64,000 nt of DNA, taken from the IMG/VR virus record IMGVR_UViG_3300037560_000199; one strand, given 5' to 3'. This document shows positions 1-48,360 of the stretch, piece by piece; position 1 is the stretch's first letter, and each line of letters begins with the position of its first letter. A program made the translations under genes and the position numbers. Below the pieces are notes generated by a model. The model ran no database searches, was not told the DNA's origin, and saw only the letters and a list, made by a program, of their open reading frames with translations. Origin of the DNA: an uncultured virus (IMG/VR IMGVR_UViG_3300037560_000199). Taxonomy: Duplodnaviria; Heunggongvirae; Uroviricota; Caudoviricetes.

Positions 1-244
1 TCTCCTCCTCGAAGTAGTCTTTGAACTTCTCCGCATAGCCTGCGAGGACATCCCATGGATCATCACCGATGTATCCCTTCACGAGCTTTGCGCGGACGTA
101 TGCGTTGAGCATCTCGTGCAGGATCTCACCCTTGAACAAACGCATGTGTTTGCGCTGACGTTTGAGCCCGATCTTGTAACGGTACTCCCAGGCTTTCTGA
201 CATCGTCGGAACGATGAGACTTCGGAGTAGCTAACCGTTGGCAT
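1..244 (-). CDS. PD-(D/E)XK (RecB/Cas4-like) exonuclease, N-terminal part; runs off window
   Basis: Manual translation MPTVSYSEVSSFRRCQKAWEYRY...FKGEILHEML fits the S-x-S...C...Y...G-x-x-x-H N-terminus of phage PD-(D/E)XK nucleases; start overlaps the polymerase end. Confidence 0.7.
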   Translation of the reverse strand, partial: MPTVSYSEVSSFRRCQKAWEYRYKIGLKRQRKHMRLFKGEILHEMLNAYVRAKLVKGYIGDDPWDVLAGYAEKFKDYFEEE

Positions 245-2765
245 ACTTTGTTCCCCTCCCCCATGGTCCCAGTTCTACTTCGCCTTCCATCGGGACGTTG
301 AGTTTGATTTTGAATGTCTTCATGAGCTTCGGCTTTCTGATGATGTCGAGCACCTTCGGCGCACACTCGTCTATGTGCTCGTCCTTCACGATGATTAGCA
401 ATGCATCGTGGTGCTCACCTACAATCCTGAGTTTGTTGCGTGGGAAGGTCCGGTGCACCTCGATCAGGATCATCACTTTGTAATCGCCAATGAATCCTTG
501 CACCGGAGAGTTCACTGCCTGTCGCTCAGCCTCCGCTCGTATCTTGTTGTCCTTGACTTGAATGCCAGGGAGACGTCGCAGACGTCCCGTAAGAGTGCGT
601 GTGTATCCACTCAGGCGAGCGAGCTTCTTCACCTTGCGGTGCCACGCTTCGAGCTGCGCATACAATGCGAAGTAAGCCTTGCGTGCTTGCGTTGCCTCAG
701 CCATCGTCGGCTCGAAGCCGTAGTCTTTCATTGCCTGTTCGATGTATCGCTTCTCGCGCATCCCGAAAAGATAACCAAAGTTCGTTGCCTTCGAGCGATA
801 GCGTCCGTCGTACCAGCGAGGCTCGACCTTGATGCATCTCTCGGGTCCAGCTGTGAGCAATGTATCAATTGCGTCGGAGTAGCTGTTCGGGTAGTGCCCT
901 AGTGCATCTGCTGTTGGTGCTACGAGATCAGAGAATTCGTTGGTGCCCACCTCCATTGTGTTCATGCAGGTGCGCCAGTGGATGTCGATGCCTTCGTTGA
1001 AGCAACGCAGCATCTCGGTGTCTCGCGAGAGATGCGCTGCCGTGCGAAGCTCAGCTTGTGAGATGTCAGCGAAGAGGAACGTCCATCCATCGGGAGCGGT
1101 AACGATGTTGCGAATGGTGCCGTCGCGTGGGATGGGGTGCAGTGGTGAGGAGTAGCGTCCTGTCTTGGTGCCGTGCAGTTTGTAATCGAAAAAGTAGGTG
1201 TTGCCGATGCGGTACTGCTGCCATCCTTTGACATAGGTGTTGAAAAGTTTCGCTGCCGTTCGGTATTCTAGTAATTTGTCCACCACCACATGTTTGCCTA
1301 CGAGGTGATAGAGCGCAGCCTCAGACGTGCTCTTTTTCTTTTTCGGCGTAAAAATTTTGCAGGGTAGTCCCAATTCGTCGTATAGGAGGGGTGCCACCTG
1401 ATCACGACTGTCCCAGTTCAGTTCATAGCCTGCCAGTTGGTTCAATTCGTATTCGAGCGTGAGCTTCTTCGACAGGAGATCGAGACCTGCTTCCTTGCGT
1501 GCGACCGGATCGATGGTCAGCCCTTCCATCTCGATATCCAACATAGCCCGCGCTCCAGGCATCGTGAGTCGCCAGAAGAGTCGGTTGAGGTCAGGCTGCT
1601 GCTCCAGTCTCTCCTCGAAGATGTGAGCCAAGCGCAACGTGTACGCAGCGTCCTTGCCGCAGTACTCATAGTTCCGCATGGGCTTCTCGCTCTTGCCTTG
1701 TTTCTCAGCCAGGGGAATGTCGTACTCAGGCTCCCCGTCGAGGTGAGCACGCACCATGCTGGTGAGGTCGTGGGCAAGGTTCTCGTCAAGCAAATGGTGT
1801 GCCAGCATGACGTCGAAGGTCAGTCGGAAGCTGTCCCCAAATTGGGTCCTCATCCACTTACAGTCGAATTTTCCACCCTGTGCATAAGTCCGCTTGCCAT
1901 CTCGACGTGCGATGTGAAACAGTAGCTGCATCAATCGCTTGAGAGCATCACCGTGGGCAAAGGGGCTGTGGGAAAACTGTTGATAGTCCGGGTGCATGTA
2001 ACCGGGGATGACCCACGTGCGCTCTTCAAGTGCTATCGCAATCGCCGTGACATACCCCTCAGGGTCGAATGGGAAAAGGCCGGAAGTTTCACAGTCGAAG
2101 GCGAATTCTGGAGCCTCACTGAATTCATGGATGAACTGGTCGAGATTGCCTCTGCGCACGACCTTCCACTCGACGGTGTCGTTGCGGAGTCCACCGGCAA
2201 TAAGACGAGCAAGCCTGCCAAGATCATCCTTGAAGCCGGGGAGCTTCGACGGATCGCGTAGACAGTAAGCCGGGTGGAAAATCGGCATGCCGATGTAGTC
2301 CACCTTCTCGTTCTGGATGACCTCACCATGGAACTTGTTGATCGATGCTCTGCCACGGAAAAGTGTCTTCGTTGCAGGCACCCCTGCGGTGACAACAAAC
2401 TGTGGATAGAGTGTGGATAACTCTTCTTCGAGGTAGGGCTTGCAGGCTTTGATCTCAGCAGCGGTGGGTGTTCGGTTCTGTGGTGGTCGGCACTTGACGA
2501 GGTTCGTGATGTACGTCTTGTCGCTGAGTCCATTGCGCTGCAGCTCGTTGCGCAATATCTGACCACTGTCGCCAATGAAGGGCACGCCTCGACGGTCCTC
2601 ATTGGCACCGGGTGCTTCACCGATGACGAGCACTTGGACGTCGTCAGGATTGGATGGACCTTCCCCTCGCATGCAGACCGTCGAAGCGGTCGCGTGGAGT
2701 CCGCAGTCAGTGCAGCTGGAGTTGATGCTCGTCACTGAGCTTTTTCTTTTCAGCGTTCCGTTCAA
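231..2765 (-). CDS. polA: Family A DNA polymerase with N-terminal family-4 uracil-DNA glycosylase domain and 3'-5' exonuclease
   Basis: UDG motifs CTDC, GEAPG, VKCRPPQNR, HPAY; exonuclease DCETSG; polymerase motifs A (ADISQAELR), B (RSKATNFG) and C (HDA). Start codon uncertain. Confidence 0.95.
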   Translation of the reverse strand: MNGTLKRKSSVTSINSSCTDCGLHATASTVCMRGEGPSNPDDVQVLVIGEAPGANEDRRGVPFIGDSGQILRNELQRNGLSDKTYITNLVKCRPPQNRTPTAAEIKACKPYLEEELSTLYPQFVVTAGVPATKTLFRGRASINKFHGEVIQNEKVDYIGMPIFHPAYCLRDPSKLPGFKDDLGRLARLIAGGLRNDTVEWKVVRRGNLDQFIHEFSEAPEFAFDCETSGLFPFDPEGYVTAIAIALEERTWVIPGYMHPDYQQFSHSPFAHGDALKRLMQLLFHIARRDGKRTYAQGGKFDCKWMRTQFGDSFRLTFDVMLAHHLLDENLAHDLTSMVRAHLDGEPEYDIPLAEKQGKSEKPMRNYEYCGKDAAYTLRLAHIFEERLEQQPDLNRLFWRLTMPGARAMLDIEMEGLTIDPVARKEAGLDLLSKKLTLEYELNQLAGYELNWDSRDQVAPLLYDELGLPCKIFTPKKKKSTSEAALYHLVGKHVVVDKLLEYRTAAKLFNTYVKGWQQYRIGNTYFFDYKLHGTKTGRYSSPLHPIPRDGTIRNIVTAPDGWTFLFADISQAELRTAAHLSRDTEMLRCFNEGIDIHWRTCMNTMEVGTNEFSDLVAPTADALGHYPNSYSDAIDTLLTAGPERCIKVEPRWYDGRYRSKATNFGYLFGMREKRYIEQAMKDYGFEPTMAEATQARKAYFALYAQLEAWHRKVKKLARLSGYTRTLTGRLRRLPGIQVKDNKIRAEAERQAVNSPVQGFIGDYKVMILIEVHRTFPRNKLRIVGEHHDALLIIVKDEHIDECAPKVLDIIRKPKLMKTFKIKLNVPMEGEVELGPWGRGTKYANG

Positions 2766-2893: not shown

Positions 2894-4996
2894 GTGGCAA
2901 ATAATAAGTCCAATTTCGATGCAACACAAACAGCACATGACTGGAGAGAGCTAGACGTTTACACCGTCCCCCTTCGCTCTCGATCCAAACGACCAAAACA
3001 CACCAATTGGACCAAGCTGAGGCTCGATGGCGAGCAGCTTGATCGTGCCTTCCAGAAGGGCGACAACATCGGTGCAATTCTCGGTGAGCCCTCGAATGAC
3101 CTCACGGACCTCGATCTTGATCTGCAGGAGGCATGCGAGGTCGCGCCGCACATCATGAGCGAGGAACATGAGACATTCACCTACGGTCACCGTGAAAAAC
3201 GTGAATCACACTTTTTTTACCGCTGCCGTGGAGCTACAACCAAGAAATGGCAGACCAAATCACTGGGAACCATCGTTGAAATTCGCTCCACGGGAGCGCA
3301 GTCGGTGTTGCCCCCGTCCATCCACCCGGATGGTGATCGCTACAACATCGACAACGATATCGAATTCAAGTCCATCCCTAAACGGGAATTAGAAAGGCTT
3401 GTTGATGAAATCGCCATCGCTGCCGTGTTCTTGCACTACTACCCTGAGGAAGGCTCGCGCCACGATTACGCCCATGCCTGCACAGGAGCGTTGTGTCACG
3501 CAGGCTGGCATGCGGACAAGGTCAAGCGTGTCCTGGGTGCAGTGCTCAGCGTGATGCAGTTTGCAGATGAGGATCTGAAGGATCGCAAAGGCACCGTAGT
3601 GAACACCATCGAGCACCATGAGATGGGTGATCGCGTGCAGGGGTTCCGCTCGCTTGAGACGTGGATCGATATGCAGACCATCCAGCAATTACGCAGATGG
3701 TGCGTTCGAGGCAAAGAAGAGGCAGAGCTGCATACTCCCTCCCCAACAGTTTTACTGAAGCGCTTCGCACCTGAAAGGAGATTCAATCAAGAATGGCTCA
3801 ACGTCGATGGGCTCGTTGGTCAGATTGCGGACTGGGCAGGCAAAGCTGCGTATGTGCAGCAGCCAATGTTTAATCTCGCAACAGGGCTCATGTGCACTGC
3901 GCTGGCGAGCTGCAATAACTACCTCGTTGATGGGTGGGATACACCACTGCAACCTTATCTCATGGTCACAGCACCAACAGGTGAGGGGAAGAACGCAGTG
4001 CTCAAAGCCGTCCAGAGATTTGCGAACGAAGTAGGTCTGGAGGAATACGTTCATCAAGAGTTTCAGAGTTACTACGCGATGCTTGACAGACTAGCTGAGC
4101 CTCCCAACATGATATGCCTGCTATGGGACGAGGCAGCTCGACATCTGGCAAGCGCAAAGAACCCAATGACTCAAAGCTTTCAGATGATCAGTCACGTGAT
4201 CTCGTTGTTTGGCAGAGCAAATGAATGGGTGGCTGGATCACCCGGTCGCAAGCAAGAGATCCCTCCCCTCGAACATCCTTTTCTCATCGTCCTCGCCACC
4301 GCTCAACCTGATCAGCTCATGCTGTCGTTAGGAAATACTTCAGAAGAGACAGGTTTCTCTAACAGATTCATAATGTTTGACTCTGGCGAAGAGTTTCCAT
4401 CACGCAATCGACGTCGCACTAAAACATTCCCATCAGCGATCAAGAAACATGCTCGTCTGTTGCGTGATCATGCACCCACGGAAGATTTCACACAGGTCAC
4501 CTGGGATAGCCCGAAGACATACAACATGTTCGATGACTTCGAGGAGACGGCTCGACATCGCACGCACCTAAAAGAGTATGCCTGGGCACGAGCGAACCAG
4601 AATGCGTTGATCATGGCGGGGCTCGTCGCTGTTGGTATCGATGCAGAGAGACCTGTGATCACAGAGGACATGGCTAACTGGGCCATAGAGGTTGTGACGT
4701 GGAGCACGACTGTCTGGACCGAGAAGATACGCTTGGCAGGTGGGGAGACCGTCAACGAGCAGGAGTCGTTCAAGGTGCAAGAGCGCATCAAAAACCCCAG
4801 GAAGTATTTGAAGACAGCGAATTCAGAGACACACCGAAAGCTGATAACTCAGGGCTACATGCCTCACTCAGTACTGATCCAAGTGACTCGGGGGATGAAG
4901 CGTTATCGACGTGAGGAGATCTTAGATGACTTGCATGAAGCGGGGCTAATTGATTCGTCTGACATGGGAGACAACAGAGTCTATTTCATCAAGTAA
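2894..4996 (+). CDS. Bifunctional primase-polymerase fused to DUF3987-like P-loop helicase domain
   Basis: KRP, NIG, DLDLD, HFFY, LPPSIH prim-pol motifs; Walker A APTGEGKN and Walker B LLWDE. Confidence 0.85.
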   Translation: MANNKSNFDATQTAHDWRELDVYTVPLRSRSKRPKHTNWTKLRLDGEQLDRAFQKGDNIGAILGEPSNDLTDLDLDLQEACEVAPHIMSEEHETFTYGHREKRESHFFYRCRGATTKKWQTKSLGTIVEIRSTGAQSVLPPSIHPDGDRYNIDNDIEFKSIPKRELERLVDEIAIAAVFLHYYPEEGSRHDYAHACTGALCHAGWHADKVKRVLGAVLSVMQFADEDLKDRKGTVVNTIEHHEMGDRVQGFRSLETWIDMQTIQQLRRWCVRGKEEAELHTPSPTVLLKRFAPERRFNQEWLNVDGLVGQIADWAGKAAYVQQPMFNLATGLMCTALASCNNYLVDGWDTPLQPYLMVTAPTGEGKNAVLKAVQRFANEVGLEEYVHQEFQSYYAMLDRLAEPPNMICLLWDEAARHLASAKNPMTQSFQMISHVISLFGRANEWVAGSPGRKQEIPPLEHPFLIVLATAQPDQLMLSLGNTSEETGFSNRFIMFDSGEEFPSRNRRRTKTFPSAIKKHARLLRDHAPTEDFTQVTWDSPKTYNMFDDFEETARHRTHLKEYAWARANQNALIMAGLVAVGIDAERPVITEDMANWAIEVVTWSTTVWTEKIRLAGGETVNEQESFKVQERIKNPRKYLKTANSETHRKLITQGYMPHSVLIQVTRGMKRYRREEILDDLHEAGLIDSSDMGDNRVYFIK

Positions 4997-6646: not shown

Positions 6647-7345
6647 ATGCAGATGAACGAAATCGAGAAGGCACGCCACCAGCGTGAGCAGGAAGAACGG
6701 GAGCGCAGGCGCGAGGAGGAGATCCAAAAGATCCACGACCTCCGTATGGCGGAATTCAAGCTGATCGAGAACGGCATCAAGCCGCTACTCTTTGCTCCCC
6801 TCGCTGCTGACGCGAATCAGTACCGTCAACTCACTCGCCATATCGTCACCGCAGAAGGTGAGAAGGTGGGGACGCTTTCGTACAAGCAGAACTGGTCTTG
6901 GAAGAGCGGTCGCTATTCCGTCAGCAGCAGACGCATCCTGAAGCATGGACGCTACAGCTGGGGAGAAGGTCAACGCTTCTATAAGAAGCTCGACTCTGTG
7001 GTCAAAGCGATCACGAAGTTCTGCATCGCAGTGTCGAATGACGAGGAGCGTGCCAAGGTGCTGCGCAACGAACTGCAGCATTACCGCGAGGTACTCCGCA
7101 ACTCGCAGAGACGCTCGAAATCCATTACAGGGCAGTACTCCGGTACTCTCGCTGTCGATGGGATTGTTGAGCTGCTCGCCAGCGACATCAAACAGGATCA
7201 GCTCGAAGGTCAGGAGATGATGCGCGTGCTGGTTCGCAAGAAGAGAGTGTCCCGTCGTTTCTCCGCTTGGGTGTTGGAGAGGTTCCTCGCTCCCCGTCAG
7301 AAGGAACTGGACAGCCTGGACACATCCAAGGAAAAGGTCAAATAG
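6647..7345 (+). CDS. Hypothetical early protein
   Basis: 232 aa ORF with AAGGAGCG RBS. Confidence 0.75.
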   Translation: MQMNEIEKARHQREQEERERRREEEIQKIHDLRMAEFKLIENGIKPLLFAPLAADANQYRQLTRHIVTAEGEKVGTLSYKQNWSWKSGRYSVSSRRILKHGRYSWGEGQRFYKKLDSVVKAITKFCIAVSNDEERAKVLRNELQHYREVLRNSQRRSKSITGQYSGTLAVDGIVELLASDIKQDQLEGQEMMRVLVRKKRVSRRFSAWVLERFLAPRQKELDSLDTSKEKVK

Positions 7346-7387
7346 GAGAACTAGATCACAGTAACGGTAACGGTCCCGTGATTTAAT
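7345..7387 (+). promoter_or_regulatory. CRP-box/operator/extended -10 promoter cassette
   Basis: GGAGA-actaga-TCACA 7345-7360, operator 7364-7379, TGa-TTTAAT 7382-7387. Confidence 0.75.
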
Positions 7388-7393
7388 GGGTTT

Positions 7394-7605
7394 ACATTCA
7401 GCAACACAGAGGAGGAATCTTACTGCTGCCTAAAACGAGTACGTGCATGCACGGGTAGAATTGAAACGGCATAAAAACTGCGTAACCAGACGCGACTACC
7501 GGCAGGCTCACCAAGGACTCCACACTGTTTCGCTCCAACGTCACACAGTGGACGCACTTGGCACCGTCACCAAGCGGTGGGCAGCAGTAAGATTTCACCT
7601 ACGAC
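7394..7605 (+). ncRNA. Structured leader or ncRNA carrying anti-RBS sequence
   Basis: Perfect 15-bp stem 7416-7430/7580-7594; internal hairpins; CTGTTTCGCTCCAAC at 7525-7539. Confidence 0.6.
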
Positions 7606-7621
7606 AGAAGGAGCGAGACAG

Positions 7622-7942
7622 ATGAGTAAGACAGACAATGAAGACAACCTGAAGCCTCTTGCTGACGAGTACGGCAAGCTCAAGGCTCAGCTAGCTGACC
7701 TGAAGCGGCACATGGTGGACATCAAGGAGATCTTCGAGGTGGCTGGAGTTGCCTCCTTAGAAGGTGACGTCTTCCGCCTCGTGATCTCCCACGTCGATGA
7801 CTCCACGGGTCCCGACTGGAAGAAGATCGCCTTGCGCTACAAGCCTTCCAAGCGAGTCATCGAAGCACCGGGCAACCAGAAGGTGACCCAGCAGGCGCAC
7901 GTGAGAGTGAACGTCTACGCTCGCACGGGGGAGGAGTCATGA
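7622..7942 (+). CDS. Hypothetical protein (N-terminal coiled coil)
   Basis: RBS GGAGCGAGACAG-ATG; ATGA overlap with next gene. Confidence 0.75.
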   Translation: MSKTDNEDNLKPLADEYGKLKAQLADLKRHMVDIKEIFEVAGVASLEGDVFRLVISHVDDSTGPDWKKIALRYKPSKRVIEAPGNQKVTQQAHVRVNVYARTGEES

Positions 7943-11719: not shown

Positions 11720-11781
11720 AACGGAGCCAAAAGAGTGGATGAGTGCAGGTCGCTACTGCGCAACAAAGAGCTTCACACTGG

Positions 11782-11813
11782 GTAGCGGGGGTCCACGTCT
11801 CGCTACTTTTTTT
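11782..11813 (+). terminator. Rho-independent terminator
   Basis: GTAGCG(GG)...(CT)CGCTAC stem followed by T7. Confidence 0.8.
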
Positions 11814-11819
11814 CAGAAC

Positions 11820-11897
11820 TGTGACGTAGTCGATATTAACGGTAGCGCTAACGTGATTTAATAGTGGTTCAGTCAAAGTTAGTTGGAGCGAGACAGA
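11820..11897 (+). promoter_or_regulatory. CRP-box/operator/extended -10 promoter plus conserved leader
   Basis: TGTGA 11820, operator 11839-11854, TGa-TTTAAT 11857, leader TTCAGTCAAAGTTAGTTGGAGCG. Confidence 0.8.
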
Positions 11898-12023
11898 ATG
11901 AAGTACGGAGCAGAGCACTACAAGTGCAGCCTCTCGAAGAAACAGAATCGTCGCAACCGTCGCGTTGCTCGCAGCCAAGAGCGTCGTGTCGGTAAAGCAG
12001 CAGCACAGGAGCGAAACAGATGA
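11898..12023 (+). CDS. Arg-rich 41-aa peptide
   Basis: MKYGAEHYKCSLSKKQNRRNRRVARSQERRVGKAAAQERNR; cassette RBS; ATGA coupling; not in ORF track. Confidence 0.65.
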   Translation: MKYGAEHYKCSLSKKQNRRNRRVARSQERRVGKAAAQERNR

Positions 12024-12382
12024 GCAAGTTCAGTGATCCGATGCCCCGAAGCGAGCACGAGTGCCCCCGGTGCCATCAGGTACTTCAGCCTCTCAGCAAT
12101 GGGATTCCTCACCACTGCAAGGTGAAGGAGTTGCCCTACGAAGAGATGTGCGAAGCGCTGCAGGGTCTGCAGGAGCATTACGGCGAGACGTATGCTCAGC
12201 ACCGCAACGAGACCGCACAGTTCGGTGACTCCTGGCCCGGTGCGCAGATCGAGTTGAGCGAGATGGGCGCAAGCGTCCGCAAGCTCGAAGCTGAGATCGA
12301 AGCGCATCCCGACCACAACCCTCTGCGCAGCTGGGACGAGAAGCTCAGCGATGATTTCACTGACGACGACATCCCGTTTTAG
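12020..12382 (+). CDS. Zn-finger/coiled-coil protein ending in SSB-like tail DDDIPF
   Basis: CPRC...HHC; C-terminus DFTDDDIPF; RBS GGAGCGAAACAG. Confidence 0.75.
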   Translation: MSKFSDPMPRSEHECPRCHQVLQPLSNGIPHHCKVKELPYEEMCEALQGLQEHYGETYAQHRNETAQFGDSWPGAQIELSEMGASVRKLEAEIEAHPDHNPLRSWDEKLSDDFTDDDIPF

Positions 12383-12398
12383 GAAGGAGCGAAACAGT

Positions 12399-12614
12399 AT
12401 GGAAATTGATATCAGAGGATCGCAGGGCAACGCAAGGTTTCTCATGGGCAGCGCCGAGCGATGGGCGAAGCAACTGGAGTGGGATCAATCAGCGATTGAC
12501 GAGATGATGGAAGACATGGAGTCAGGTGACTACAACCACCTGCTCGACGTGATCGAGGAGAAGTTCAAGTACGTCGTCACGCTCATCGGTCGCGACGGGG
12601 AGGACGACGAATGA
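12399..12614 (+). CDS. Hypothetical protein
   Basis: RBS GGAGCGAAACAGT-ATG; GSQGNA...MESGDYNHLL. Confidence 0.7.
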   Translation: MEIDIRGSQGNARFLMGSAERWAKQLEWDQSAIDEMMEDMESGDYNHLLDVIEEKFKYVVTLIGRDGEDDE

Positions 12615-12853
12615 ATCTTGATCGACCGATTCTACTCAGCGTCTGAGCCGATGGTGAAATATCCTTCCGTGAGAAGGACGAGCCAAGGCACCGCACCGCG
12701 CTTCCGTTCCACAGTGTGGATACGAAGGAGGAAGCGCAGAGCATGCAGGTCAGACACTGCAGGTATCACTACGATGGACGCTACATCCTGAACCACTGGA
12801 GTGGTGACGTCGAAGACATTTTCACCCTAGCCGATACGCTGGGCCTGGACTAG
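12611..12853 (+). pseudogene. 80-codon ORF interrupted by in-frame TGA at codon 12
   Basis: GGAGG RBS and ATGA coupling; frame stays open after TGA 12644-12646 to TAG 12853 and fills the intergenic gap. Confidence 0.55.
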
Positions 12854-12867
12854 GAGGAGCGAAACAG

Positions 12868-13332
12868 ATGACCACGCACGTTGACAGAGCACGCACACTC
12901 GCACGCATTGCGCACCACGGTCAGGTGGACAAGGCAGGCGACGACTACTTCACCGGGCACCTGACGCGAGTTGCTGAGGCAGCTGACTACTACATCGACA
13001 TGAGCGTGGGCTACCTGCACGACATCGTGGAGGACACCGTGGTTACGTTGGTGGATCTCCATACTCTGGACTTTAGCTACGACATCATCGCAGCTGTCCA
13101 GGCACTGACGCACGACAAGGACAGGCATACCTACGCCGAGTACATCACGCACATCATCGGCATTGGAGGCAGCGCTCTGCGGGTGAAGTTCAGCGACACA
13201 CGAGATCATCTGCGCGAGGAGACTATGCATGCCATCACTGCTTCGCTAGTCAAGCGCTACGAGGATGCCTTCGAGCGGCTAGCGCGAGCTAAAGGGAAGG
13301 AGGCAGAGAAGCTCCGAGAAACGGGTTTCTAG
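12868..13332 (+). CDS. HD-domain phosphohydrolase, small alarmone ((p)ppGpp) hydrolase-like
   Basis: AHHGQVDKAG..Y..H...LHDIVEDT...VKFSD. Confidence 0.8.
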   Translation: MTTHVDRARTLARIAHHGQVDKAGDDYFTGHLTRVAEAADYYIDMSVGYLHDIVEDTVVTLVDLHTLDFSYDIIAAVQALTHDKDRHTYAEYITHIIGIGGSALRVKFSDTRDHLREETMHAITASLVKRYEDAFERLARAKGKEAEKLRETGF

Positions 13333-13335
13333 AAG

Positions 13336-13411
13336 TGTGACGCAGTCGCTATTAACGCTAACGCTCCCGTGGTCTAATGTACGCTCAGTCATTCGTTGGA
13401 GCGAAGCTAAG
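13336..13411 (+). promoter_or_regulatory. CRP-box/operator/extended -10 promoter cassette
   Basis: TGTGA 13336, operator 13355-13370, TGg-TCTAAT 13373, GTTGGAGCG. Confidence 0.75.
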
Positions 13412-13798
13412 ATGCAGACCACCAGACAACGTCGAAGAGCAGCCTCGAACAACCGAGAGAACCCCAACCAGAACAAGTGCGGGCTCGCGATTGCTCAAGC
13501 TCTCGGGGTAGACGACAAGGTCCGTTACCTGCACACCATCCGCGACCTCAAGCGTGCAGCCTCTCACTACTTCAGCGTGCGCAGTCGAGCGACTGCTCTG
13601 GGTCTGAAGAAAGGCAAGCGCACCACCGTGGGCTCCATGCGCAGGCACTGCGCACTCCAAGGGGCTCGTTGGTTCCTTGTGTGGACGCCCCTGCACGTGC
13701 TCCTGCTCAATGCCAAGGGCACCACCATCATCGACGCTGACCCGCGCAAGCGCGATTCGCGCCCGGTCCTGGGAGTCTGGGGCTTGTTCCCGAAATAG
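13412..13798 (+). CDS. Basic hypothetical protein with Arg-rich N-terminus
   Basis: MQTTRQRRRAA...; cassette RBS. Confidence 0.7.
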   Translation: MQTTRQRRRAASNNRENPNQNKCGLAIAQALGVDDKVRYLHTIRDLKRAASHYFSVRSRATALGLKKGKRTTVGSMRRHCALQGARWFLVWTPLHVLLLNAKGTTIIDADPRKRDSRPVLGVWGLFPK

Positions 13799-13799
13799 C

Positions 13800-13890
13800 G
13801 GATGTTCAAAAGTGTGACGCAGTCGCTATTAACGGCACCGGTAACGTGGTCTAATAGTGGTTCAGTCAAAGTTAGTTGGAGCGAAGCAAT
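13800..13890 (+). promoter_or_regulatory. CRP-box/operator/extended -10 promoter plus conserved leader
   Basis: TGTGA 13813, operator 13832-13847, TGg-TCTAAT 13850, leader identical to 11868-11890. Confidence 0.8.
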
Positions 13891-14097
13891 ATGACAACGG
13901 TTAGACAAGAGATACAACACCTCGAAGAGCAGACGCGCAAAGCGCTGCGTGACATCAACGACGCTGAGCATCGCATCTCGATCAACAGCGACTACGTTGG
14001 TGCAGTGCTGGACCTTCAACGTGCAAGCGGTCGCCTGCTCTTCGCAAGCGAGCGCATCGCCTTTCTCGCAGAGCAGATGGTGGAGGAAGGAGCATGA
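13891..14097 (+). CDS. Hypothetical coiled-coil protein
   Basis: Cassette RBS; ATGA coupling. Confidence 0.7.
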   Translation: MTTVRQEIQHLEEQTRKALRDINDAEHRISINSDYVGAVLDLQRASGRLLFASERIAFLAEQMVEEGA

Positions 14098-14324
14098 AAG
14101 CATCAACCTTGATGAAGCTCTCCATCCAGAAGCGCAACTCAGCGATGGAGGAATGCGTCGATGTCCTAGTGCTGGGTAACAACGTGTTCACCGTTGGCAG
14201 GACCGACAACGGGTTCGCCAGCTGGGCAGTCAGCGATCACGACGACAGCAGCTATTGGGGTCACTACTTCTCGACTCACGAGGCGGCAGTGGCTGACATG
14301 TACGAGAGGGCTGGAGTCAAGTGA
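14094..14324 (+). CDS. Hypothetical protein (YWGHYF motif)
   Basis: AAGGAG RBS; coupling. Confidence 0.7.
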   Translation: MKASTLMKLSIQKRNSAMEECVDVLVLGNNVFTVGRTDNGFASWAVSDHDDSSYWGHYFSTHEAAVADMYERAGVK

Positions 14325-14437
14325 AAGCGACGATGTCAATGTGTCAGACGCTGATGCTGGTCGCAGACGACGACCTGCTCAGCGATCTGGACCAAATACT
14401 CGAATCAAAAATGCCGACAAGGCAAGGAGCGAAACAG

Positions 14438-14662
14438 ATGAAAGTTGAAGTAACCGAGACGTTCGGAGTGCGCCGCAGCAAGGACGGCGAGATCGAGATC
14501 CACGAGGGTCATGCAGTCACCGGACTGTGCATCCTCAGAGCCCCCACGCTGGAGCAGGCAGTTGCTGACCTTCGCGAGATGATGGAAGGCGATTCCATTG
14601 GCGAGTTCGAGGTGCACGTGATCGATGTGCATCCGACCAACGACAAAGACTTGCTGTCATGA
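14438..14662 (+). CDS. Hypothetical protein (may also start at GTG 14321)
   Basis: RBS GGAGCGAAACAG-ATG in frame with upstream GTG. Confidence 0.6.
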   Translation: MKVEVTETFGVRRSKDGEIEIHEGHAVTGLCILRAPTLEQAVADLREMMEGDSIGEFEVHVIDVHPTNDKDLLS

Positions 14663-14919
14663 GCAAGACAACCATCGACCTCACTCCCACGTGGCGAGCA
14701 GTAATGTCTGCCTACGTGAGAGTGCTCACAGAGGGCAATGCAGAAGGTCAACACATCGCACGCGACGAGCTACTGAACGTGGGCAAATGGCTGGATGAAT
14801 TCAACACGATGGAGTGGGGAAAGATCCTGCGCGCCGCCGACGCTAGCGACGATGATGATGTGCGGACAGCTGTCGCAGCCGTGCGTGAGTGGTTCGCCAG
14901 CGATGAGGAGCAGTCGTGA
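14659..14919 (+). CDS. Hypothetical protein (TIDLTPTW motif)
   Basis: ATGA coupling. Confidence 0.7.
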   Translation: MSKTTIDLTPTWRAVMSAYVRVLTEGNAEGQHIARDELLNVGKWLDEFNTMEWGKILRAADASDDDDVRTAVAAVREWFASDEEQS

Positions 14920-15167
14920 AAATCCAGTGGGTCTATCAGGATGATGCGGGATTCTGGGATAGCTTCGAGGAGCGCTTCTCAGTCTCCCCCATCTACATCG
15001 GGCGCACTTCGCCGCAAGGCTACGAGCTTCGCGATGCGCTCAAGACTCACACTGTTACCACTCCTCACGGCGAGCATGAGTCTCGTGTCTATCACGGGAT
15101 CTGGACAGTGCGCGAAGCGAAGGCAAAAGCCGAAGAGATCCTGCAAGCCGAGAGAAGGCGCAAATAA
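14916..15167 (+). CDS. Hypothetical protein
   Basis: GAGGAG RBS; GTGA coupling. Confidence 0.65.
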   Translation: MKIQWVYQDDAGFWDSFEERFSVSPIYIGRTSPQGYELRDALKTHTVTTPHGEHESRVYHGIWTVREAKAKAEEILQAERRRK

Positions 15168-15168
15168 C

Positions 15169-15260
15169 GGATGTTCAGAAATGTGACGTAGTTCCGGACA
15201 CGGCAGCGCTAATGTGTTTTAATAGATGTTCAGTCAAAGTTAGTTGGAGCGAAAACAGAT
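15169..15260 (+). promoter_or_regulatory. CRP-box/operator/extended -10 promoter plus conserved leader
   Basis: TGTGA 15182, operator 15200-15215, TGt-TTTAAT 15218 (spacing 1 nt shorter), conserved leader. Confidence 0.75.
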
Positions 15261-15701
15261 ATGCATACTCACTACCACCCCAAGACCCAGACGTGGTTCA
15301 CGCTCGACACCTGCGAGCATTGCGGCGGCGACGTGCAAGCGGCGAACGCTGTGAAGGTCTCGAAGGATCAGCAGCTGCAACTCGTCAAGATGGGCGTGAC
15401 CATCGTGGAGACTCTCCCGGTGGAAGGCTATTGGAGCGATGCGGTCGAAGGCGAGCAGTGCGACAACTGCCTCGACAACCACGACGTCACCGTCACGATG
15501 TCTCCCCACTTGGCGCGAATGCTTGCAACCGCAACCATCACCAATCACGAGACGACCCTGCAGGTCGCGAAGGAAGCGATGGCATTCAAGCGCACTCTGC
15601 GCCGCAAGCTCCGCGCTGCTGGTGAGCATACTGGTGAGGTCCACTCCACGCAGGAACGCGAGTTTCCTTATGTGTCGGACGGCGACGTCAGTCACGACTA
15701 A
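15261..15701 (+). CDS. Zn-ribbon hypothetical protein
   Basis: CEHC and CDNC pairs; cassette RBS. Confidence 0.7.
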   Translation: MHTHYHPKTQTWFTLDTCEHCGGDVQAANAVKVSKDQQLQLVKMGVTIVETLPVEGYWSDAVEGEQCDNCLDNHDVTVTMSPHLARMLATATITNHETTLQVAKEAMAFKRTLRRKLRAAGEHTGEVHSTQEREFPYVSDGDVSHD

Positions 15702-15725
15702 ACTAGCGAACACGAGGCGGAATAG

Positions 15726-15818
15726 GGATGTTCCGTTTTGTGACGTGGATCACAGTAACGGTAGCGCTAACGTGTTTTAATAGATGTTCAGTCAAAGTTA
15801 GTTGGAGCAAAACAGAAT
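15726..15818 (+). promoter_or_regulatory. CRP-box/operator/extended -10 promoter plus conserved leader
   Basis: Perfect TGTGA-cgtgga-TCACA 15739-15754, operator 15758-15773, TGt-TTTAAT 15776. Confidence 0.85.
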
Positions 15819-17300
15819 ATGATCTTTTCACCTTTCCAAACCGCGATCTTCGACTGGTGCAAAGCGCACCTCGAAACGGCAGGCGCACTCGTCGTGCAAG
15901 CTGTCGCAGGTTCCGGCAAAACCACCGTCATCGTTGAGGCCGCGAATTTCATTCCTGCAGATCACAAGGCTGCGTTCCTCGCGTTCAACAAGAACACCGC
16001 TGACAAGCTGCGCGAGAAGCTTCCCGAGCACGTCGAAAGCAAAACGCTCAATGCTCTAGGATGGGCGGCATGCCGCTACAACCTTGGCAAAGCGATCAAG
16101 GTCAATGCGAGCAAGACCCGCGACCTGATCCGCAGGCACCTGTCCGACGATGCCGCTGAGGTGATGGGCGACCTGATGAATCTCATCGGCAAGGCGAAGT
16201 CTCACGGTCTCATACCGGTAGGCTACGCGAACCCGACTGGGACCTATGAGGCAACCGACGAGCGCTGGATTGAGCTGATGGACCGGTTCGACATCGACCC
16301 CAACAATGGCACCACCGAAGCTGAGTTTCTAGGATGGGCGAACACGCTGCTCAAGCTAGGGCTCGAAGAAACCCACGAGCTTGACTTCGATGATCAGCTG
16401 TATATGCCCGTCGCACTCGACATGCGCACGTGGGGTTACGACTGGGTCATCGTCGATGAGGCGCAAGATGTCTCCCACGTGCAGCGCACCTTGCTTCGCA
16501 AGTTTCTCAAGCGCGGCGGCAGAGTGATTGCAGTGGGCGATTCTCATCAAGCTATCTACGGGTTTCGCGGTGCAGACTCGCAGTCACTCGCGAACATCGG
16601 GCGACTGTTCAAGGCTGATGAGCTACCGCTCTCGATCAGCTATCGTTGCCCGCGCAAGGTGATCGAGATAGCTAAGCAATTTGTCCCGCACATTGAGTGC
16701 AGCGACACTGCCGAAGAAGGCGAGGTGTTGAACCCGACAGCATGGTCAATCGATTCGTTCAGCGACGATGACCTGATCGTCTGCCGCAACACTGCGCCGC
16801 TGATCGAGCTTGCATACAAGTGCATCGCGGAAGGCAAGAAGGTGCACGTGATGGGTCGCGACATCGGCACCGGTCTGATCAACGTGGTCAAGAAAGCAGG
16901 CGGCAAGCGTATCAGCACCATCGAAGAGCTTCGCCCGAAGCTTGATGCATGGCAACAACGACAGCTGCGCAAGGCGGGCGAAGATGAGGCGAAGCAAGCT
17001 GCAGTAACCGATAAGGTTGACTGCCTCAACGTGGTGATGGCGGGACTCGAAACCATCGCTGAGCTAGTCGCTGCGATTAACAGCATCTTCAGCAATGATG
17101 TGAAGGGAACCACCTTAGCAACGGTGCACAAGGCGAAGGGTATGGAAGCGCCGCGAGTGTTCATACTCGAACCGCACCTCATGCCATCACCTTGGGCGCG
17201 CCAGCCCTGGCAACAAGAGCAGGAAGCCAACCTGCAATACGTTGCCGTGACCCGTGCGCTTGAGACGCTGGTCTACCTTCCTTTGGACATAATCGAATAG
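15819..17300 (+). CDS. UvrD/Rep-family superfamily 1 helicase
   Basis: AVAGSGKT, VDEAQD, VGDSHQAIYGFRGA, SYRCP, TVHKAKGME, YVAVTRA. Confidence 0.95.
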   Translation: MIFSPFQTAIFDWCKAHLETAGALVVQAVAGSGKTTVIVEAANFIPADHKAAFLAFNKNTADKLREKLPEHVESKTLNALGWAACRYNLGKAIKVNASKTRDLIRRHLSDDAAEVMGDLMNLIGKAKSHGLIPVGYANPTGTYEATDERWIELMDRFDIDPNNGTTEAEFLGWANTLLKLGLEETHELDFDDQLYMPVALDMRTWGYDWVIVDEAQDVSHVQRTLLRKFLKRGGRVIAVGDSHQAIYGFRGADSQSLANIGRLFKADELPLSISYRCPRKVIEIAKQFVPHIECSDTAEEGEVLNPTAWSIDSFSDDDLIVCRNTAPLIELAYKCIAEGKKVHVMGRDIGTGLINVVKKAGGKRISTIEELRPKLDAWQQRQLRKAGEDEAKQAAVTDKVDCLNVVMAGLETIAELVAAINSIFSNDVKGTTLATVHKAKGMEAPRVFILEPHLMPSPWARQPWQQEQEANLQYVAVTRALETLVYLPLDIIE

Positions 17301-17317
17301 TCGCTCCAACGGCTGTT

Positions 17318-17342
17318 AGCCCCGGAAACGGGGCTTTTTTTT
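17318..17342 (+). terminator. Rho-independent terminator
   Basis: AGCCCCG-GAAA-CGGGGCT followed by T-run. Confidence 0.9.
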
Positions 17343-17354
17343 GATTGTCAGAAA

Positions 17355-17435
17355 TGTGAACTGCGTCACAGTAACGGGAGCGCTAACGTGAGAGAATAGC
17401 TATTCAATCGAGATAGTGAGTTGGAGCGAAACGGC
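17355..17435 (+). promoter_or_regulatory. CRP-box/operator/extended -10 promoter cassette
   Basis: AAA-TGTGA-actgcg-TCACA 17355-17370, operator 17374-17389, TGa-GAGAAT 17392. Confidence 0.85.
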
Positions 17436-18209
17436 ATGAACAAGAACGGCATCATTCTCTGGGAAGGCAAGTCCAAGCTTGCGGGACATCGCGAGGTTGA
17501 CATCGTTGTGATCGCAGTCGGTCTCAACGATAGCAAGAATCGCAAGACCGGCAACATGCTGCAGACCTATATCCTTCTGCGCGACGTCTCGCCAGTGGAA
17601 GCAATCAAGCTAGGCTTTGACGGTGCGATCTGCGGCAAGTGCGTGCACCGTGGCGACGACGGGTTCAGTGGTCGCACTTGCTACGTGAACGTGGGGCAAG
17701 GTGTCACATCGGTTTGGCTCTGCTTTCAGCGCGGCAATTACGCCAAGGTGCAGAGCACCGAAGAGATTCGCGAAGTCGGTGCGGGTCGCATGGTTCGACT
17801 GGGAACGTACGGCGACCCCAAAGCAGTGCCCGCTGAGATCTGGGAAGCATTGCTCTCTCGTTCAAAGGGTCACACTGGCTACACTCACCAATGGGAAAGC
17901 GCACGCGGCGCAAGATGGCAACGGCTTGTGATGGCAAGTGCGGATACCCCCAACGATGCAACGATGGCGCACGCGAAAGGGTTCCGTACGTTTCGAGTGA
18001 ATCGCGACGGGGTGAAGGCGAAAGGTGAAGTGATATGTCCTGCGAGCGAGGAAGCGGGCAAGAAGCTGCAGTGTGATACGTGCGGCGCATGCAACGGGAC
18101 AGCCACGCAGCGCAAGGGTTCGATTACAATCAAGGCGCATGGTTCGCAGGTGAGCGAGCGCAACCTTGACAAGCTTGATGCGCGGATCATCGCGAGAATG
18201 GCGGCATGA
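17436..18209 (+). CDS. Cys-rich conserved phage protein (GP88-like, possibly Fe-S binding)
   Basis: CGKC...CYV, RLGTYGDP, TGYTHQW, CPAS, CDTCGAC, AHG. Confidence 0.6.
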   Translation: MNKNGIILWEGKSKLAGHREVDIVVIAVGLNDSKNRKTGNMLQTYILLRDVSPVEAIKLGFDGAICGKCVHRGDDGFSGRTCYVNVGQGVTSVWLCFQRGNYAKVQSTEEIREVGAGRMVRLGTYGDPKAVPAEIWEALLSRSKGHTGYTHQWESARGARWQRLVMASADTPNDATMAHAKGFRTFRVNRDGVKAKGEVICPASEEAGKKLQCDTCGACNGTATQRKGSITIKAHGSQVSERNLDKLDARIIARMAA

Positions 18210-18210
18210 T

Positions 18211-18477
18211 GAGCGATTGCAGGATTGCAACCGATTGCAGAAACCTGCATCAGGCTCAAAGCCACGTGGGAGTAAGGCTGCAGCCGAGCGATTGCAGAAT
18301 TGCAAGAATCGTCGTTCTCTCTCTCTCTCTCTACTCTCTAAGAGTCTCTCTCTATACATACAACCTCTCTCTCTCTGTACAACTATACAATTATACAATT
18401 GGTATTGATAAGATACTGATAAACAAAGGGAAAACATACCCGCTGCGATTGCACCCCATTTGCATCCTGCAATCGCT
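18211..18477. repeat. Iteron-like GATTGCA repeats around (CT)n tracts and an AT-rich core; candidate replication origin
   Basis: GAGCGATTGCAG at 18211 and 18286, further GATTGCA copies, inverted copy 18464-18477; (TC)n 18316-18332 and 18365-18376; TATACAAT twice. Confidence 0.6.
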
Positions 18478-18564
18478 AGTTTCTGGGGGTCTGGTGACGT
18501 CACAATGGCGGGCGCTGCGGACAGCTGCGCGATGGTTCGCGGGTGCCCATATAGGCCCAAATAC

Positions 18565-18659
18565 GGATGTTCTAAAGTGTGAACTAGTCGATATCTACGG
18601 TAACGGTCCCGTGGCATAATGGTGTTTCAGTCAAGTTATCAAGTTGGAGCGAAAACGAA
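18565..18659 (+). promoter_or_regulatory. CRP-box/operator/extended -10 promoter cassette
   Basis: TGTGA 18578, operator 18597-18612, TGg-CATAAT 18615, GTTGGAGCG. Confidence 0.8.
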
Positions 18660-18836
18660 ATGCCACATCCTTACCAGAGCCAGTTACGCGCCCTCGAAGC
18701 CTCGCTACTTGCGAAGCTCAATGATCGCGACTGGGACAACTGCCGTCAGACCCTGCGCCGCGAGCTTGCCGATGTTCGCGCTACCATTCAGCAGGTTGCC
18801 AATTGGACCGACACGTCCGCTCAGGAGCAAAGCTAG
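18660..18836 (+). CDS. Hypothetical 58-aa helical protein
   Basis: Cassette RBS GGAGCGAAAACGAA-ATG; not in ORF track. Confidence 0.65.
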   Translation: MPHPYQSQLRALEASLLAKLNDRDWDNCRQTLRRELADVRATIQQVANWTDTSAQEQS

Positions 18837-19003
18837 TGAATGCATTCAAGAAAGCCGAAGCCCGCGCAGCCCTGCAATTGATGGCGCTGCGCAGTGAAGC
18901 CCGCGAGCTTGAGTCTCAGCTGCGAGGCAAGCGCGGAAACAGAGAGCTGATCAAGCGCGAACTCTTCGCCGTTCGGTCCATCATCATTGAGGTAACGTCA
19001 TGA
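18836..19003 (+). CDS. Hypothetical helical protein
   Basis: AGGAGC RBS; GTG overlaps previous stop. Confidence 0.6.
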   Translation: MNAFKKAEARAALQLMALRSEARELESQLRGKRGNRELIKRELFAVRSIIIEVTS

Positions 19004-19263
19004 GCGATCTAATCCAAATCGAACGCGAGCGCTTCGTTGACATCGTGCGCTACAACGTGGTGCTTTGGTCAACCTTCGCAATCGATGATAGCTCAATCTC
19101 TTGCATGCAATACATCGATGACCGTGATGGGTGCGTGCAAGCCCAAGCCATTTACCCCGCGCCCGCGCATCGTGGCGAGCCGGTGGTTCCCATCTATGAG
19201 ACGCGCCCCGAGCATTTCGAGGCTTCGGTTATGCGCGAGCTTCCCGACTACGAAAGCGAGTAG
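19000..19263 (+). CDS. Hypothetical protein
   Basis: GAGG RBS; ATGA coupling. Confidence 0.65.
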   Translation: MSDLIQIERERFVDIVRYNVVLWSTFAIDDSSISCMQYIDDRDGCVQAQAIYPAPAHRGEPVVPIYETRPEHFEASVMRELPDYESE

Positions 19264-19270
19264 CCTATGC

Positions 19271-19335
19271 GCGGCAGCGCTACCGTGATCCACGTCACAG
19301 AACGGGCAACTGCCTGAACTGTGACGGAGATCACA
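19271..19335. promoter_or_regulatory. Operator plus two CRP-type boxes at end of early region
   Basis: GCGGCAGCGCTACCGT 19271-19286; CGTGA-N6-TCACA 19284-19299; TGTGA-N6-TCACA 19320-19335. Confidence 0.7.
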
Positions 19336-19409
19336 CCAGAAAGGTGGCACCCGTCACACCCCGGCTTGACAAACAAGTCGCCGAAGGCCTCCCATTTCAA
19401 TATTTTTGA

Positions 19410-19973
19410 GTGTATACTCCTATAATCTCTTTTCTCAACGGGACCGTTGATGTGGACGAGTACGAGCCTATCGCAAAGATCTGGATCAGTGGGAAGCCCC
19501 CCCTCATCCGCATGCGTGCTCGTCTCGCGTGGGGTGAAGCCATGGAATACCCCCACGTCTTCAAGACCCGCTCCCACGCTCGTCGCATCATGGAAGCATT
19601 CGCCACCGCAGGGCAGATCGCCACCGATGATTGGAATCCGGTCTACTACCAGCCTCCGAAGTACAAGCTGCCGGAAACCGACTTCTCCTACACCCGCAAT
19701 GTCTCAGGCAAGTATGTGGTCCCCGTCGCCGCTGGTGTCGAGACTCACGGTGCCGTGGCTGAACTGCACTTAGCGCTCCCGTGTATTCCCGATGCAGATA
19801 TCTTCGATGACCCCCGAGCTGAGTTAGCCGAGCACTTTCCGCGCATCGTCAAACATGCCCCCCGCAGGCACCAGCGCATGTCCCGTTTGGAGGAGATCAA
19901 TTTGCTGCATATCGTTCGAGCTGAGAAGACGGATATCTTTATCCCCACGGGAGCGTTAGTGAATAATGATTGA
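19410..19973 (+). CDS. Hypothetical protein (start uncertain)
   Basis: 187-aa ORF coupled to next gene. Confidence 0.55.
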   Translation: MYTPIISFLNGTVDVDEYEPIAKIWISGKPPLIRMRARLAWGEAMEYPHVFKTRSHARRIMEAFATAGQIATDDWNPVYYQPPKYKLPETDFSYTRNVSGKYVVPVAAGVETHGAVAELHLALPCIPDADIFDDPRAELAEHFPRIVKHAPRRHQRMSRLEEINLLHIVRAEKTDIFIPTGALVNND

Positions 19974-20157
19974 GTACAAGTTCGTAGCTGTTCACGGGTC
20001 TATGTTGTTTGAAGACCGTATGAAAGAGTTGGTAGAGAAAGGGTGGATGCCTCTGGGTGGGCCTGCCGTAAAAGTGGTTCCCGATAAGCCTGATGGGAGC
20101 TACGATGATCGACCCACATTCTACCAGCACATGGTGAGGGGCGCAGATGATGGCTGA
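19966..20157 (+). CDS. DUF1737-like small protein
   Basis: Y..V...F...EL...GW.PLGGP...FYQHMV pattern. Confidence 0.6.
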   Translation: MIEYKFVAVHGSMLFEDRMKELVEKGWMPLGGPAVKVVPDKPDGSYDDRPTFYQHMVRGADDG

Positions 20158-48055: not shown

Positions 48056-48072
48056 CCAAAGGAGAACTAGAA

Positions 48073-48360
48073 ATGGCAAACATGAACGTGACACCACAAC
48101 AAGTCCAGATGGCAGCGTCTGCTGGAGTACAGCTGTTACAGGTAGATAATCTTGCTGTACCACTGGTCATCTCGAAGAGTGGCGCACTGGCGATGCTCGA
48201 AAACTTGCTGGGTGCGATTGCACGCGGCGAGTTGATTGTCTCACCGAATCCAGAACTGGCAGCGAAGCAAGAAACTGATCCACCACCGGATGGTGAGAAG
48301 GAACCTCAAGGGAAGGGACGAGGCAATCTCAAGCCGGTGAAGGACGACAAGGTTAACTGA
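48073..48360 (+). CDS. Hypothetical protein (possible fibre chaperone)
   Basis: AAGGAG RBS; position after fibre gene. Confidence 0.55.
   Translation: MANMNVTPQQVQMAASAGVQLLQVDNLAVPLVISKSGALAMLENLLGAIARGELIVSPNPELAAKQETDPPPDGEKEPQGKGRGNLKPVKDDKVN

Follow-up and report, generated by a model that had tools for sequence, protein, structure and literature searches.

The 64,000-nucleotide (nt) stretch of DNA analyzed here, referred to below as the window, comes from an uncultured virus of the class Caudoviricetes (IMG/VR record IMGVR_UViG_3300037560_000199) and carries, at positions 7410-7600, an element of about 190 nt that represents a new structured RNA family: the RNA is real, conserved and strand-specific. 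One of its hairpins presents the exact complement of a 15-nt consensus leader, GTTGGAGCGAAACAG, that spans the ribosome-binding site (RBS) of about a dozen predicted early and middle genes of the same phage. The reading that we favor, with a confidence that falls just short of even, is that this is an operon-embedded antisense RNA that, acting in trans, would block the translation-initiation region common to the early and middle genes; it might also block its own RBS in cis. Its transcription, processing, pairing in vivo, direction of effect and timing are what we infer from the DNA sequence. The coordinates of all features are collected in Table 1.

The plus strand of the segment 7394-7624 is predicted to fold with an energy of -75.3 kcal/mol, compared with a mean of -57.9 kcal/mol for shuffled sequences (z -4.12; none of 200 shuffles as good); the minus strand yields z -1.59, with 13 of 200 shuffles as good, and the plus strand of the orthologous RNA from a related metagenomic locus, L051, yields z -3.27, again with no shuffle out of 200 as good. 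A consensus fold of 59 pairs, derived from these two full sequences, models 7410-7600 as a plus-strand four-way junction that consists of a closing stem (P1), an irregular domain (P2) and two hairpins (P3 and P4). An earlier note, made from the sequence alone, had described a closing stem in which 7416-7430 (AATCTTACTGCTGCC) is the perfect reverse complement of 7580-7594 and which can be extended to 7410/7600; both observations hold, the extended arms being 21 nt long and 90% complementary, so that P1 can be counted as 17 contiguous pairs or as 20 pairs with one A-A mismatch. The CCAAG/CTTGG stem of the same note is likewise found, at 7511-7515/7557-7561, the base of P3. The CACTGT/ACAGTG stem that it drew further inside is present in the window but is not conserved, being broken by variants from other runs (7546 C>A, 7547 A>C and 7549 T>C); the conserved, covarying register is 7519-7523/7548-7552, and it fits the changes at all three positions. 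The upper part of P3 contains only weak pairs (7526-7528/7543-7545 and 7531-7532/7539-7540) beneath the apical loop CUCCAA at 7533-7538. Comparison with Rfam gave no match at the gathering score over the window and none at E up to 10 over 7200-7800, and ARAGORN found no tRNA-like element.

Sequence variation, taken from L051 and from contigs of the metagenomic runs X5, X7, X9 and X10, follows the predicted pairing. Between the window and L051, three of the 59 pairs are changed on both sides, one is changed on one side to a G-U pair and none is broken; the compensatory double changes fall in three stems. In P1, L051, X7 and X10 all combine 7418 T>G with 7592 A>C, and in P3, L051, X9 and X10 combine 7522 A>G with 7549 T>C; in each of these runs, both members of the double change are on the same contig. 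The two double changes are found separately as well as jointly: X7 carries only that in P1, record 13 of X9 only that in P3, and X10 and L051 carry both. In P4, a G-C pair is replaced by an A-U pair in L051, and the loop is longer by 2 nt in X5, X9 and X10; the change 7430 C>T produces a G-U pair. Contigs that span both sides of a pair include none with a half-changed pair; in X9, the 5' side of P1 is on a separate contig of similar depth, from which its P1 pair was pieced together. The segment 7523-7545, which contains the anti-leader, shows no variation in any contig or in L051. Over its whole length, the RNA is identical in the window and L051 at 192 of 216 aligned columns (88.9%), compared with 75.2% for the upstream open reading frame (ORF), 72.6% for the downstream ORF and 74% for the promoter, and it appears to evolve under purifying selection. 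The proposal of the earlier note that this is a regulatory structured RNA thus survives in one part, a conserved, strand-specific RNA that presents an anti-leader, as borne out by the covariation, by conservation above that of the flanking genes and by G-U pairs that form only in the plus-strand RNA. The other part, a conformational switch, finds no support: P1 is highly stable, the centroid fold coincides with that of minimum energy, and nothing points to an alternative fold.

Two other types of function were considered and set aside. The RNA is non-coding, because a 1-nt indel and a 9-nt insertion relative to L051 break the frame of every ORF across the element (7443-7625 on the plus strand, 7398-7598 and 7420-7557 on the minus strand). 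A function at the DNA level, as an origin or a packaging site, is unlikely given the strand asymmetry of folding and the G-U pairs.

The P2 domain is nearly invariant in sequence, and its pairs show no variation, so covariation cannot test them; in L051, an additional CAUC-GAAA-GAUG hairpin is inserted after 7461. A 381-nt contig (record 2 of run X10) resembles only the core of P2, 7454-7520, with 10 differences over 67 nt, and is unrelated to the window on both flanks; the P2 domain may occur in another context or with a different hairpin. An internal loop of P2, 7463-7472, holds GAAACGGCAT, and the same 10 bases recur at 17427-17436 as GAAACGGCATG, where they run from the end of a leader into the start codon of its gene (17436). 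The P2 segment could be a relic of a leader; alternatively, it might mimic the target within the RNA by pairing with the anti-leader's 5' half.

The earlier note had identified 7525-7539 as the exact complement of a leader. It is the exact complement of the consensus leader and is the same in L051 and in every overlapping contig, but no single leader in the window equals this 15-mer, three of them differing from it by one base; the loop matches the leader consensus rather than one particular leader. With up to three mismatches, GTTGGAGCGAAACAG has 13 matches in the window compared with 1.94 expected, and none of 100 shuffled sequences reaches this number. Twelve of the 13 are on the plus strand, 0-3 nt before an ATG, between 7607 and 18657; the sole minus-strand match is the anti-leader itself, with no mismatches, and the chance of an exact 15-mer in 128 kb is, by our estimate, about 1e-4. 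The 12-mer core GGAGCGAAACAG is found exactly at four RBSs (12008, 12386, 12856 and 14426). Elsewhere in the window, including the terminase part (28096-29691), the 15-mer has no match; weak 12-mer matches occur at 32771, 39676, 60964 and 62589, and the statement that the leader precedes start codons does not extend to these.

Predicted energies are compatible with pairing at these sites. In a scan of the whole plus strand with the 24-nt loop, leader/RBS sites account for seven of the best 10 and 11 of the best 30 duplexes, with energies of -32.4 to -21.9 kcal/mol relative to a background mean of -10.1 kcal/mol (standard deviation 3.6). Over the 12 translation-initiation regions between 7622 and 18660, the duplex energies are -20.6 to -32.2 kcal/mol, and the 15-mer alone gives duplexes of -19.4 to -26.7 kcal/mol. 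The cost of opening is 0.04 kcal/mol for the apical loop and 5.5 kcal/mol for the whole 15-mer, and 4.0-8.9 kcal/mol for the targets; the net pairing energies are favorable because the duplexes outweigh these costs. The pairing would span the Shine-Dalgarno sequence through the last base before the AUG, and antisense cover of this region should block initiation.

The early genes concerned are headed by a family of repeats, 65-90 nt long, that we denote cassettes and that precede genes at 11.8, 13.3, 13.8, 15.2, 15.7, 17.3 and 18.6 kb. The segment 7335-7399, immediately ahead of the RNA, is a copy of this seven-copy family, with 62% identity to the reference copy. In an alignment of nine cassettes, eight of them from the window, the cassettes match through a site resembling TGTGA-N6-TCACA, a -10-like TTTAAT or TCTAAT hexamer and a short leader, TCAGTCAAAGTTAGTTGGAGCGAAACAG, followed by ATG; 7335-7399 aligns with the others across the -10 region into the leader, in agreement with the earlier note, which had placed the RNA directly behind a cassette promoter. 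Transcription would start at approximately 7394-7397. In this copy, the promoter is followed by a leader-like stretch, ACATTCAGCAACACAGAGGAGG, then by the structured element and then by a second RBS, GAAGGAGCGAGACAG-ATG; none of the other seven aligned window cassettes contains the element, which gives the appearance of having been inserted into an otherwise ordinary cassette leader. The sequence AGGAGG (7410-7415), at the foot of P1, is a strong Shine-Dalgarno-like motif that aligns with the Shine-Dalgarno sequences of ordinary cassette leaders and is followed by no canonical start codon; it resembles an original RBS that insertion of the RNA has displaced. Terminator-like sites at 11780-11808 and 17318-17335 lie just ahead of the cassettes at 11.8 and 17.3 kb.

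The motif TGTGA-N6-TCACA is what we take to be the CRP-type consensus. Exact copies occur at three sites in the window (15739-15754, 17355-17370 and 19320-19335), two of them within cassettes, and at approximately 4698-4713 in L051; the L051 orthologue of the operator-like site upstream of the RNA is perfect. With up to two mismatches, the window contains 30 such sites compared with 41.8 expected, that is, not above chance. In the cassettes, the site ends 21 nt before the -10-like hexamer, and its center is near -41.5 from the predicted transcription start, which is the geometry of class II activator-dependent promoters. These features suggest that the early cassettes depend on a CRP-like activator, of either the host or the phage.

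Under the trans reading, transcription from the cassette promoter at 7335-7399 would yield the RNA as the initial part of the transcript, and P3 would present the complement of the leader, from the Shine-Dalgarno sequence through position -1, to the early and middle gene mRNAs. By covering the RBS, the pairing would block binding of the 30S subunit, and the RNA would thereby damp or shut off translation of the early and middle genes as a class. With the RNA and its targets expressed from the same kind of promoter, the circuit would form an incoherent feed-forward loop, that is, a pulse generator or a timer. The RBS downstream of the RNA, 7610-7621, might also be a target in cis, and P1 might be cut by a double-strand-specific RNase, freeing the RNA from the mRNA.

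A cis-only mechanism, in which a loop-to-tail pseudoknot with the RBS at 7610-7621 tunes translation of the operon starting at 7622, with P2 perhaps acting as the sensor of a protein or a small molecule, is an alternative that we consider unlikely. The cis pairing noticed earlier is real at the level of complementarity: 7525-7536 can pair over 12 nt with 7610-7621, 73 nt downstream, the sole non-Watson-Crick pair being a G-U, with a duplex energy of -22.8 to -24.9 kcal/mol; moreover, the element sits in the 5' untranslated region (UTR), P2 is nearly invariant, and P3 and P1 are of similar length, so that the loop could reach the 3' tail. Yet the loop agrees with the GTT-extended cassette consensus at all 15 positions and with its own RBS at only 12 of them, and in L051 and X7 the change G7617T in that RBS creates a U-U mismatch with the loop, which is unchanged. 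Because of the better match and this uncompensated change, trans action on the other leaders is favored. Furthermore, the RBS is predicted to be mostly open in the 231-nt fold, Rfam contains no matching riboswitch or leader family, and the 17-bp P1 differs from the P1 stems of ligand-gated riboswitches; with the single fold on which the prediction methods agree, the element does not resemble a known riboswitch or cis-regulatory leader.

Several points weigh against the trans reading. The three additional matches that favor trans over cis pairing would arise by chance in about 1 of 64 cases. Within the anti-leader, nine of the 15 positions are mostly unpaired (predicted unpaired probability 0.95-1.00), whereas six are mostly paired (0.00-0.09), with a mean of 0.61. 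The promoter, the transcription start and the RNA ends are all predictions, and none of the 11 listed sequencing runs is an RNA run. The comparison comprises two full sequences and partial contigs, in which the anti-leader is invariant and loop and target accordingly do not covary; L051 ends before the cassette region, so the leaders of relatives there fall outside the comparison. Because conservation is high throughout the RNA, that of the 15-mer taken alone is not specific, and the near-invariance of P2, which pure antisense action does not explain, suggests a further partner, for instance a protein, a ligand or a tertiary fold. Finally, the terminator scan detected no intrinsic terminator between the RNA end at 7600 and the start codon at 7622, and processing would therefore be needed to release a free small RNA; the scan's only terminator-like call nearby, 7375-7390, is upstream, within the promoter. 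The element thus lacks the terminator with a U tail at the 3' end that characterizes Hfq-type trans-acting small RNAs. P1 provides approximately two turns of mostly regular double helix, as in RNase III substrates, and RNase III-type processing of P1 is structurally plausible.

The same long helix, of 17 bp or of 20 bp with one mismatch, underlies another explanation, to which we assign a low probability: that the element serves RNA processing or stability, or acts as a processive antitermination RNA, within the leader of a long operon, with the anti-leader match being incidental. Examples of such elements are the RNase III sites of the T7 early mRNAs, the lambda N leader and the put RNA of HK022. 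The location of the element, between a promoter that immediately precedes it and a run of small ORFs extending to 11780-11808, and the conserved primary sequence of P2 are in line with this explanation. It leaves unexplained, however, an exact 15-nt complement of the leader that is the only minus-strand copy in 64 kb and that is held at the tip of a hairpin by a covarying stem, and the element is present in only one of the eight aligned window cassettes.

Relatives of the region help to trace the origin of the element. The 232-aa protein encoded upstream has 28 metagenomic homologues, and a metagenome scan with their alignment yielded nine loci, all of which were inspected. The RNA is present at the same place in only one of these, L051 (72% protein identity). 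Four loci (L055, L056, L058 and L059; about 40% identity) retain the gene order without the RNA; in these, the 106-aa ORF homologue is preceded by a promoter of the form TTGACA-N17-TATAAT and by the short leader AAGGAGCAAACAG-ATG. In L058, GGAGCAAACAG-ATG is repeated at three starts. In the remaining four (L052, L053, L054 and L057), a different gene comes next. Because the RNA-less loci already have GGAGCAAACAG-ATG leaders, the RNA was apparently added, in a 5' UTR, to a pre-existing shared leader. Broader searches recovered no further copies. In IMG/VR, the two flanking proteins alone gave no relatives, and the protein alignment gave two loci, both without the RNA; the 15-mer leader gave 50 loci, all attributable to chance (longest shared stretch 24 nt), a 20-mer from the loop matched once, within a coding region that is unrelated, a 23-mer from the P2 core matched nothing, and a gapped P2 pattern gave 21 loci, all attributable to chance. 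Among the GTDB genomes, the protein alignment found nothing and a 21-mer from P2 had no matches. In two of the RNA-less relatives (L055, 2296-2320; L058, 4700-4725), the -10 hexamer TATAAT ahead of the 106-aa ORF homologue lies in the loop of an inverted repeat, CTCCC...GGGAG; the window keeps CCCGTG...GGG at 7375-7390, the site called terminator-like in the scan.

These relatives also bear on the possibility that the element is a functionless relic of a small mobile insertion, of the MITE (miniature inverted-repeat transposable element) or Correia-like type, or of a local rearrangement. The 15-bp perfect terminal inverted repeats (90% complementarity over the 21-nt arms), the empty site in the more distant relatives, the leader-like sequences on both flanks (ACAGAGGAGG and ACAGAAGGAG) and the X10 contig that resembles only 7454-7520 between dissimilar flanks would all be expected of such a relic. 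Nevertheless, we regard it as highly improbable: the multiple dispersed copies typical of these elements are missing, with a single copy in the window, one orthologous copy in L051 and none in the other loci examined; conservation exceeds that of the neighboring genes; and compensatory changes preserve three helices, including G-U pairs that work only as plus-strand RNA. Correia/ERIC-type miniature inverted-repeat elements are transcribed into mRNAs and cut by RNase III, and the window element is similar to them in being a short 5' UTR insertion with terminal inverted repeats that forms a long stem in the mRNA. It differs in being single-copy, in the covariation of its internal helices and in its target-complementary loop.

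Among known phage RNAs, the closest in arrangement to the proposed antisense RNA are the c4 RNA of P1 and P7 and the CI RNA of the satellite phage P4, which reportedly lie within the leader of the operon that they control, share a promoter with their target, carry loops complementary to the downstream ribosome-binding region and act after processing. The window RNA similarly lies upstream of a loop-complementary site, 7610-7621, with which it would share a transcript from the cassette promoter. It is, however, a predicted four-way junction of about 190 nt, whereas the c4 and CI RNAs are said to be tRNA-like and about 70-80 nt long, and it has about 12 predicted target leaders in several transcription units, compared with what is reportedly a single operon. 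The C4 antisense RNA regulates Ant expression, according to the part of PMC8201110 that deals with it. No match to the Rfam C4 family was obtained for the window RNA at E up to 10, nor does this RNA show signs of RNase P-type processing or an evident role in lysogenic immunity. In T4-type phages, PeSL (promoter-early stem-loop) cassettes, that is, repeated portable promoter-plus-leader units, are said to head early genes; these are the cassettes themselves rather than a leader-complementary RNA, and the window promoter differs in having a TGTGA-N6-TCACA site near -41.5.

A parallel of another kind comes from the Cluster K mycobacteriophages. Their start-associated sequences (SAS) are described, in the sections of Pope et al. 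2011 (PMC3203893) and of PMC11373665 on this motif, as 13-15 nt long, extending beyond the Shine-Dalgarno sequence just upstream of the starts of many non-structural genes, in one orientation; in subcluster K1, a single SAS in the opposite orientation is reported (Pope et al. 2011, PMC3203893). The same sections treat the role of the SAS as unknown, still so in 2024, and raise an RNA or protein binding partner as a possibility (PMC3203893, PMC11373665). The window leader shares these properties: it extends beyond the Shine-Dalgarno sequence, a few nucleotides from the starts of non-structural genes, in one orientation and with a single reverse copy. The motif, the phage group and the host are different. 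In Adephagia (JF704105), we found 16 SAS on the plus strand and one on the minus strand (one mismatch), the latter in the 432-nt gap between genes 92 and 93, where late transcription reportedly starts; the reverse copy in the window, in contrast, is in a 5' UTR behind an early-type promoter. The gap folds strongly (z -8.15), with the anti-SAS in the loop of a long hairpin at approximately 58,661-58,713 of the record.

Thirteen of 182 matching phage records were aligned over this hairpin. The loop CCUCCUAUCCC is kept in six of the 13; the lower stem of these six has 10 pairs, of which three are altered on both sides and none is disrupted. Of the others, four have different pyrimidine-rich loops, two a different insert and one no loop. 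Covariation between loop and SAS was not detected in Cluster K: Unicorn and Amohnition, the two checked among the four with different loops, keep the same SAS. The parallel, confined to K1, is suggestive, and the Adephagia hairpin may be an anti-SAS RNA. It is conceivable, if rather doubtful, that anti-leader RNAs are a general phage device that arose several times, in which all genes of a temporal class carry a common initiation leader and one structured RNA, with the complement of that leader at a hairpin tip, switches the translation of the class, and that the Cluster K SAS are another case. The Cluster K phages are cultured, with RNA-seq data and genetic tools, and thus offer a route to an answer on the SAS, a puzzle since 2011.

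Promoters, sigma factors, repressors and a few protein translational repressors are the usual explanation for the timing of phage gene expression. If the trans reading is correct, a single RNA that recognizes a common leader would provide a compact post-transcriptional shut-off or pulse of the early genes and would explain why some phages keep over-long, identical ribosome-binding leaders. The predicted pairing of 12-15 nt can be mutated and restored on both partners, which makes the idea directly testable.

Table 1. Features of the window discussed in the text
Feature	Position	Strand	Remarks
DNA polymerase	231-2765	-	PHROG match
Primase	2894-4996		PHROG match
Operator-like site of cassette	7345-7360	+	GGAGAACTAGATCACA, 2 mismatches to TGTGA-N6-TCACA
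Predicted -10 hexamer TTTAAT	7382-7387	+	nine-cassette alignment and repeat family
5' single-stranded segment	7394-7409	+	with AGGAGG 7410-7415, aligns with ordinary short cassette leader
P1 closing stem, 5' strand	7410-7430	+	7414-7430 with 7580-7596 (17 bp); 7410-7412 with 7598-7600
P2 domain	7445-7507	+	irregular helix 7445-7458 with 7496-7507; encloses hairpin P2b 7479-7483/7490-7494
P3 anti-leader hairpin	7511-7561	+	P3a 7511-7515/7557-7561; P3b 7518-7523/7548-7552 and 7554
Anti-leader CTGTTTCGCTCCAAC	7525-7539	+	exact complement of consensus leader
P4 hairpin	7562-7579	+	7562-7567/7574-7579; loop variable in length and sequence
P1 closing stem, 3' strand	7580-7600	+	
RBS/leader of the RNA itself, GAAGGAGCGAGACAG	7607-7621	+	3 mismatches to consensus; possible cis target
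First ORF behind the RNA, 106 aa	7622-7942	+	heads tightly packed run of small ORFs ending at terminator-like site 11780-11808
Predicted trans-target region	11882-18657	+	leader copies upstream of start codons
Starts of leader/RBS copies	11882, 12005, 12383, 12853, 13395, 13875, 14423, 15243, 15801, 17420, 18643	+	
Helicase	15819-17300	+	PHROG match; among genes of predicted trans-target region
Large terminase	28096-29691		PHROG match

The window is a phage-like contig with a GC content of 53-59%, and nearly all of its long ORFs are on the plus strand. The proteins that flank the RNA, of 232 aa upstream and 106 aa downstream, belong to no Pfam or PHROG family. All sequenced phages are distant, the top match of the DNA polymerase having 38.9% identity, and a blastn search of the region against sequenced phages gave no match. 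The nearest virus record (G001) is 100% identical in the two stretches that were compared (L063 and L064; window 14248-20133); extrapolated, its coverage would be approximately 13316-51225 of the window, which leaves out the RNA region. The 11 listed runs that contain the stretch are labelled as marine sediment or marine metagenomes, and the runs aligned to the window contributed contigs only. In the late region, a 67-nt repeat occurs five times at 45165-52036, inside the large ORFs 44810-48055 and 50400-52433, and probably marks repeated domains of tail- or fiber-like proteins.

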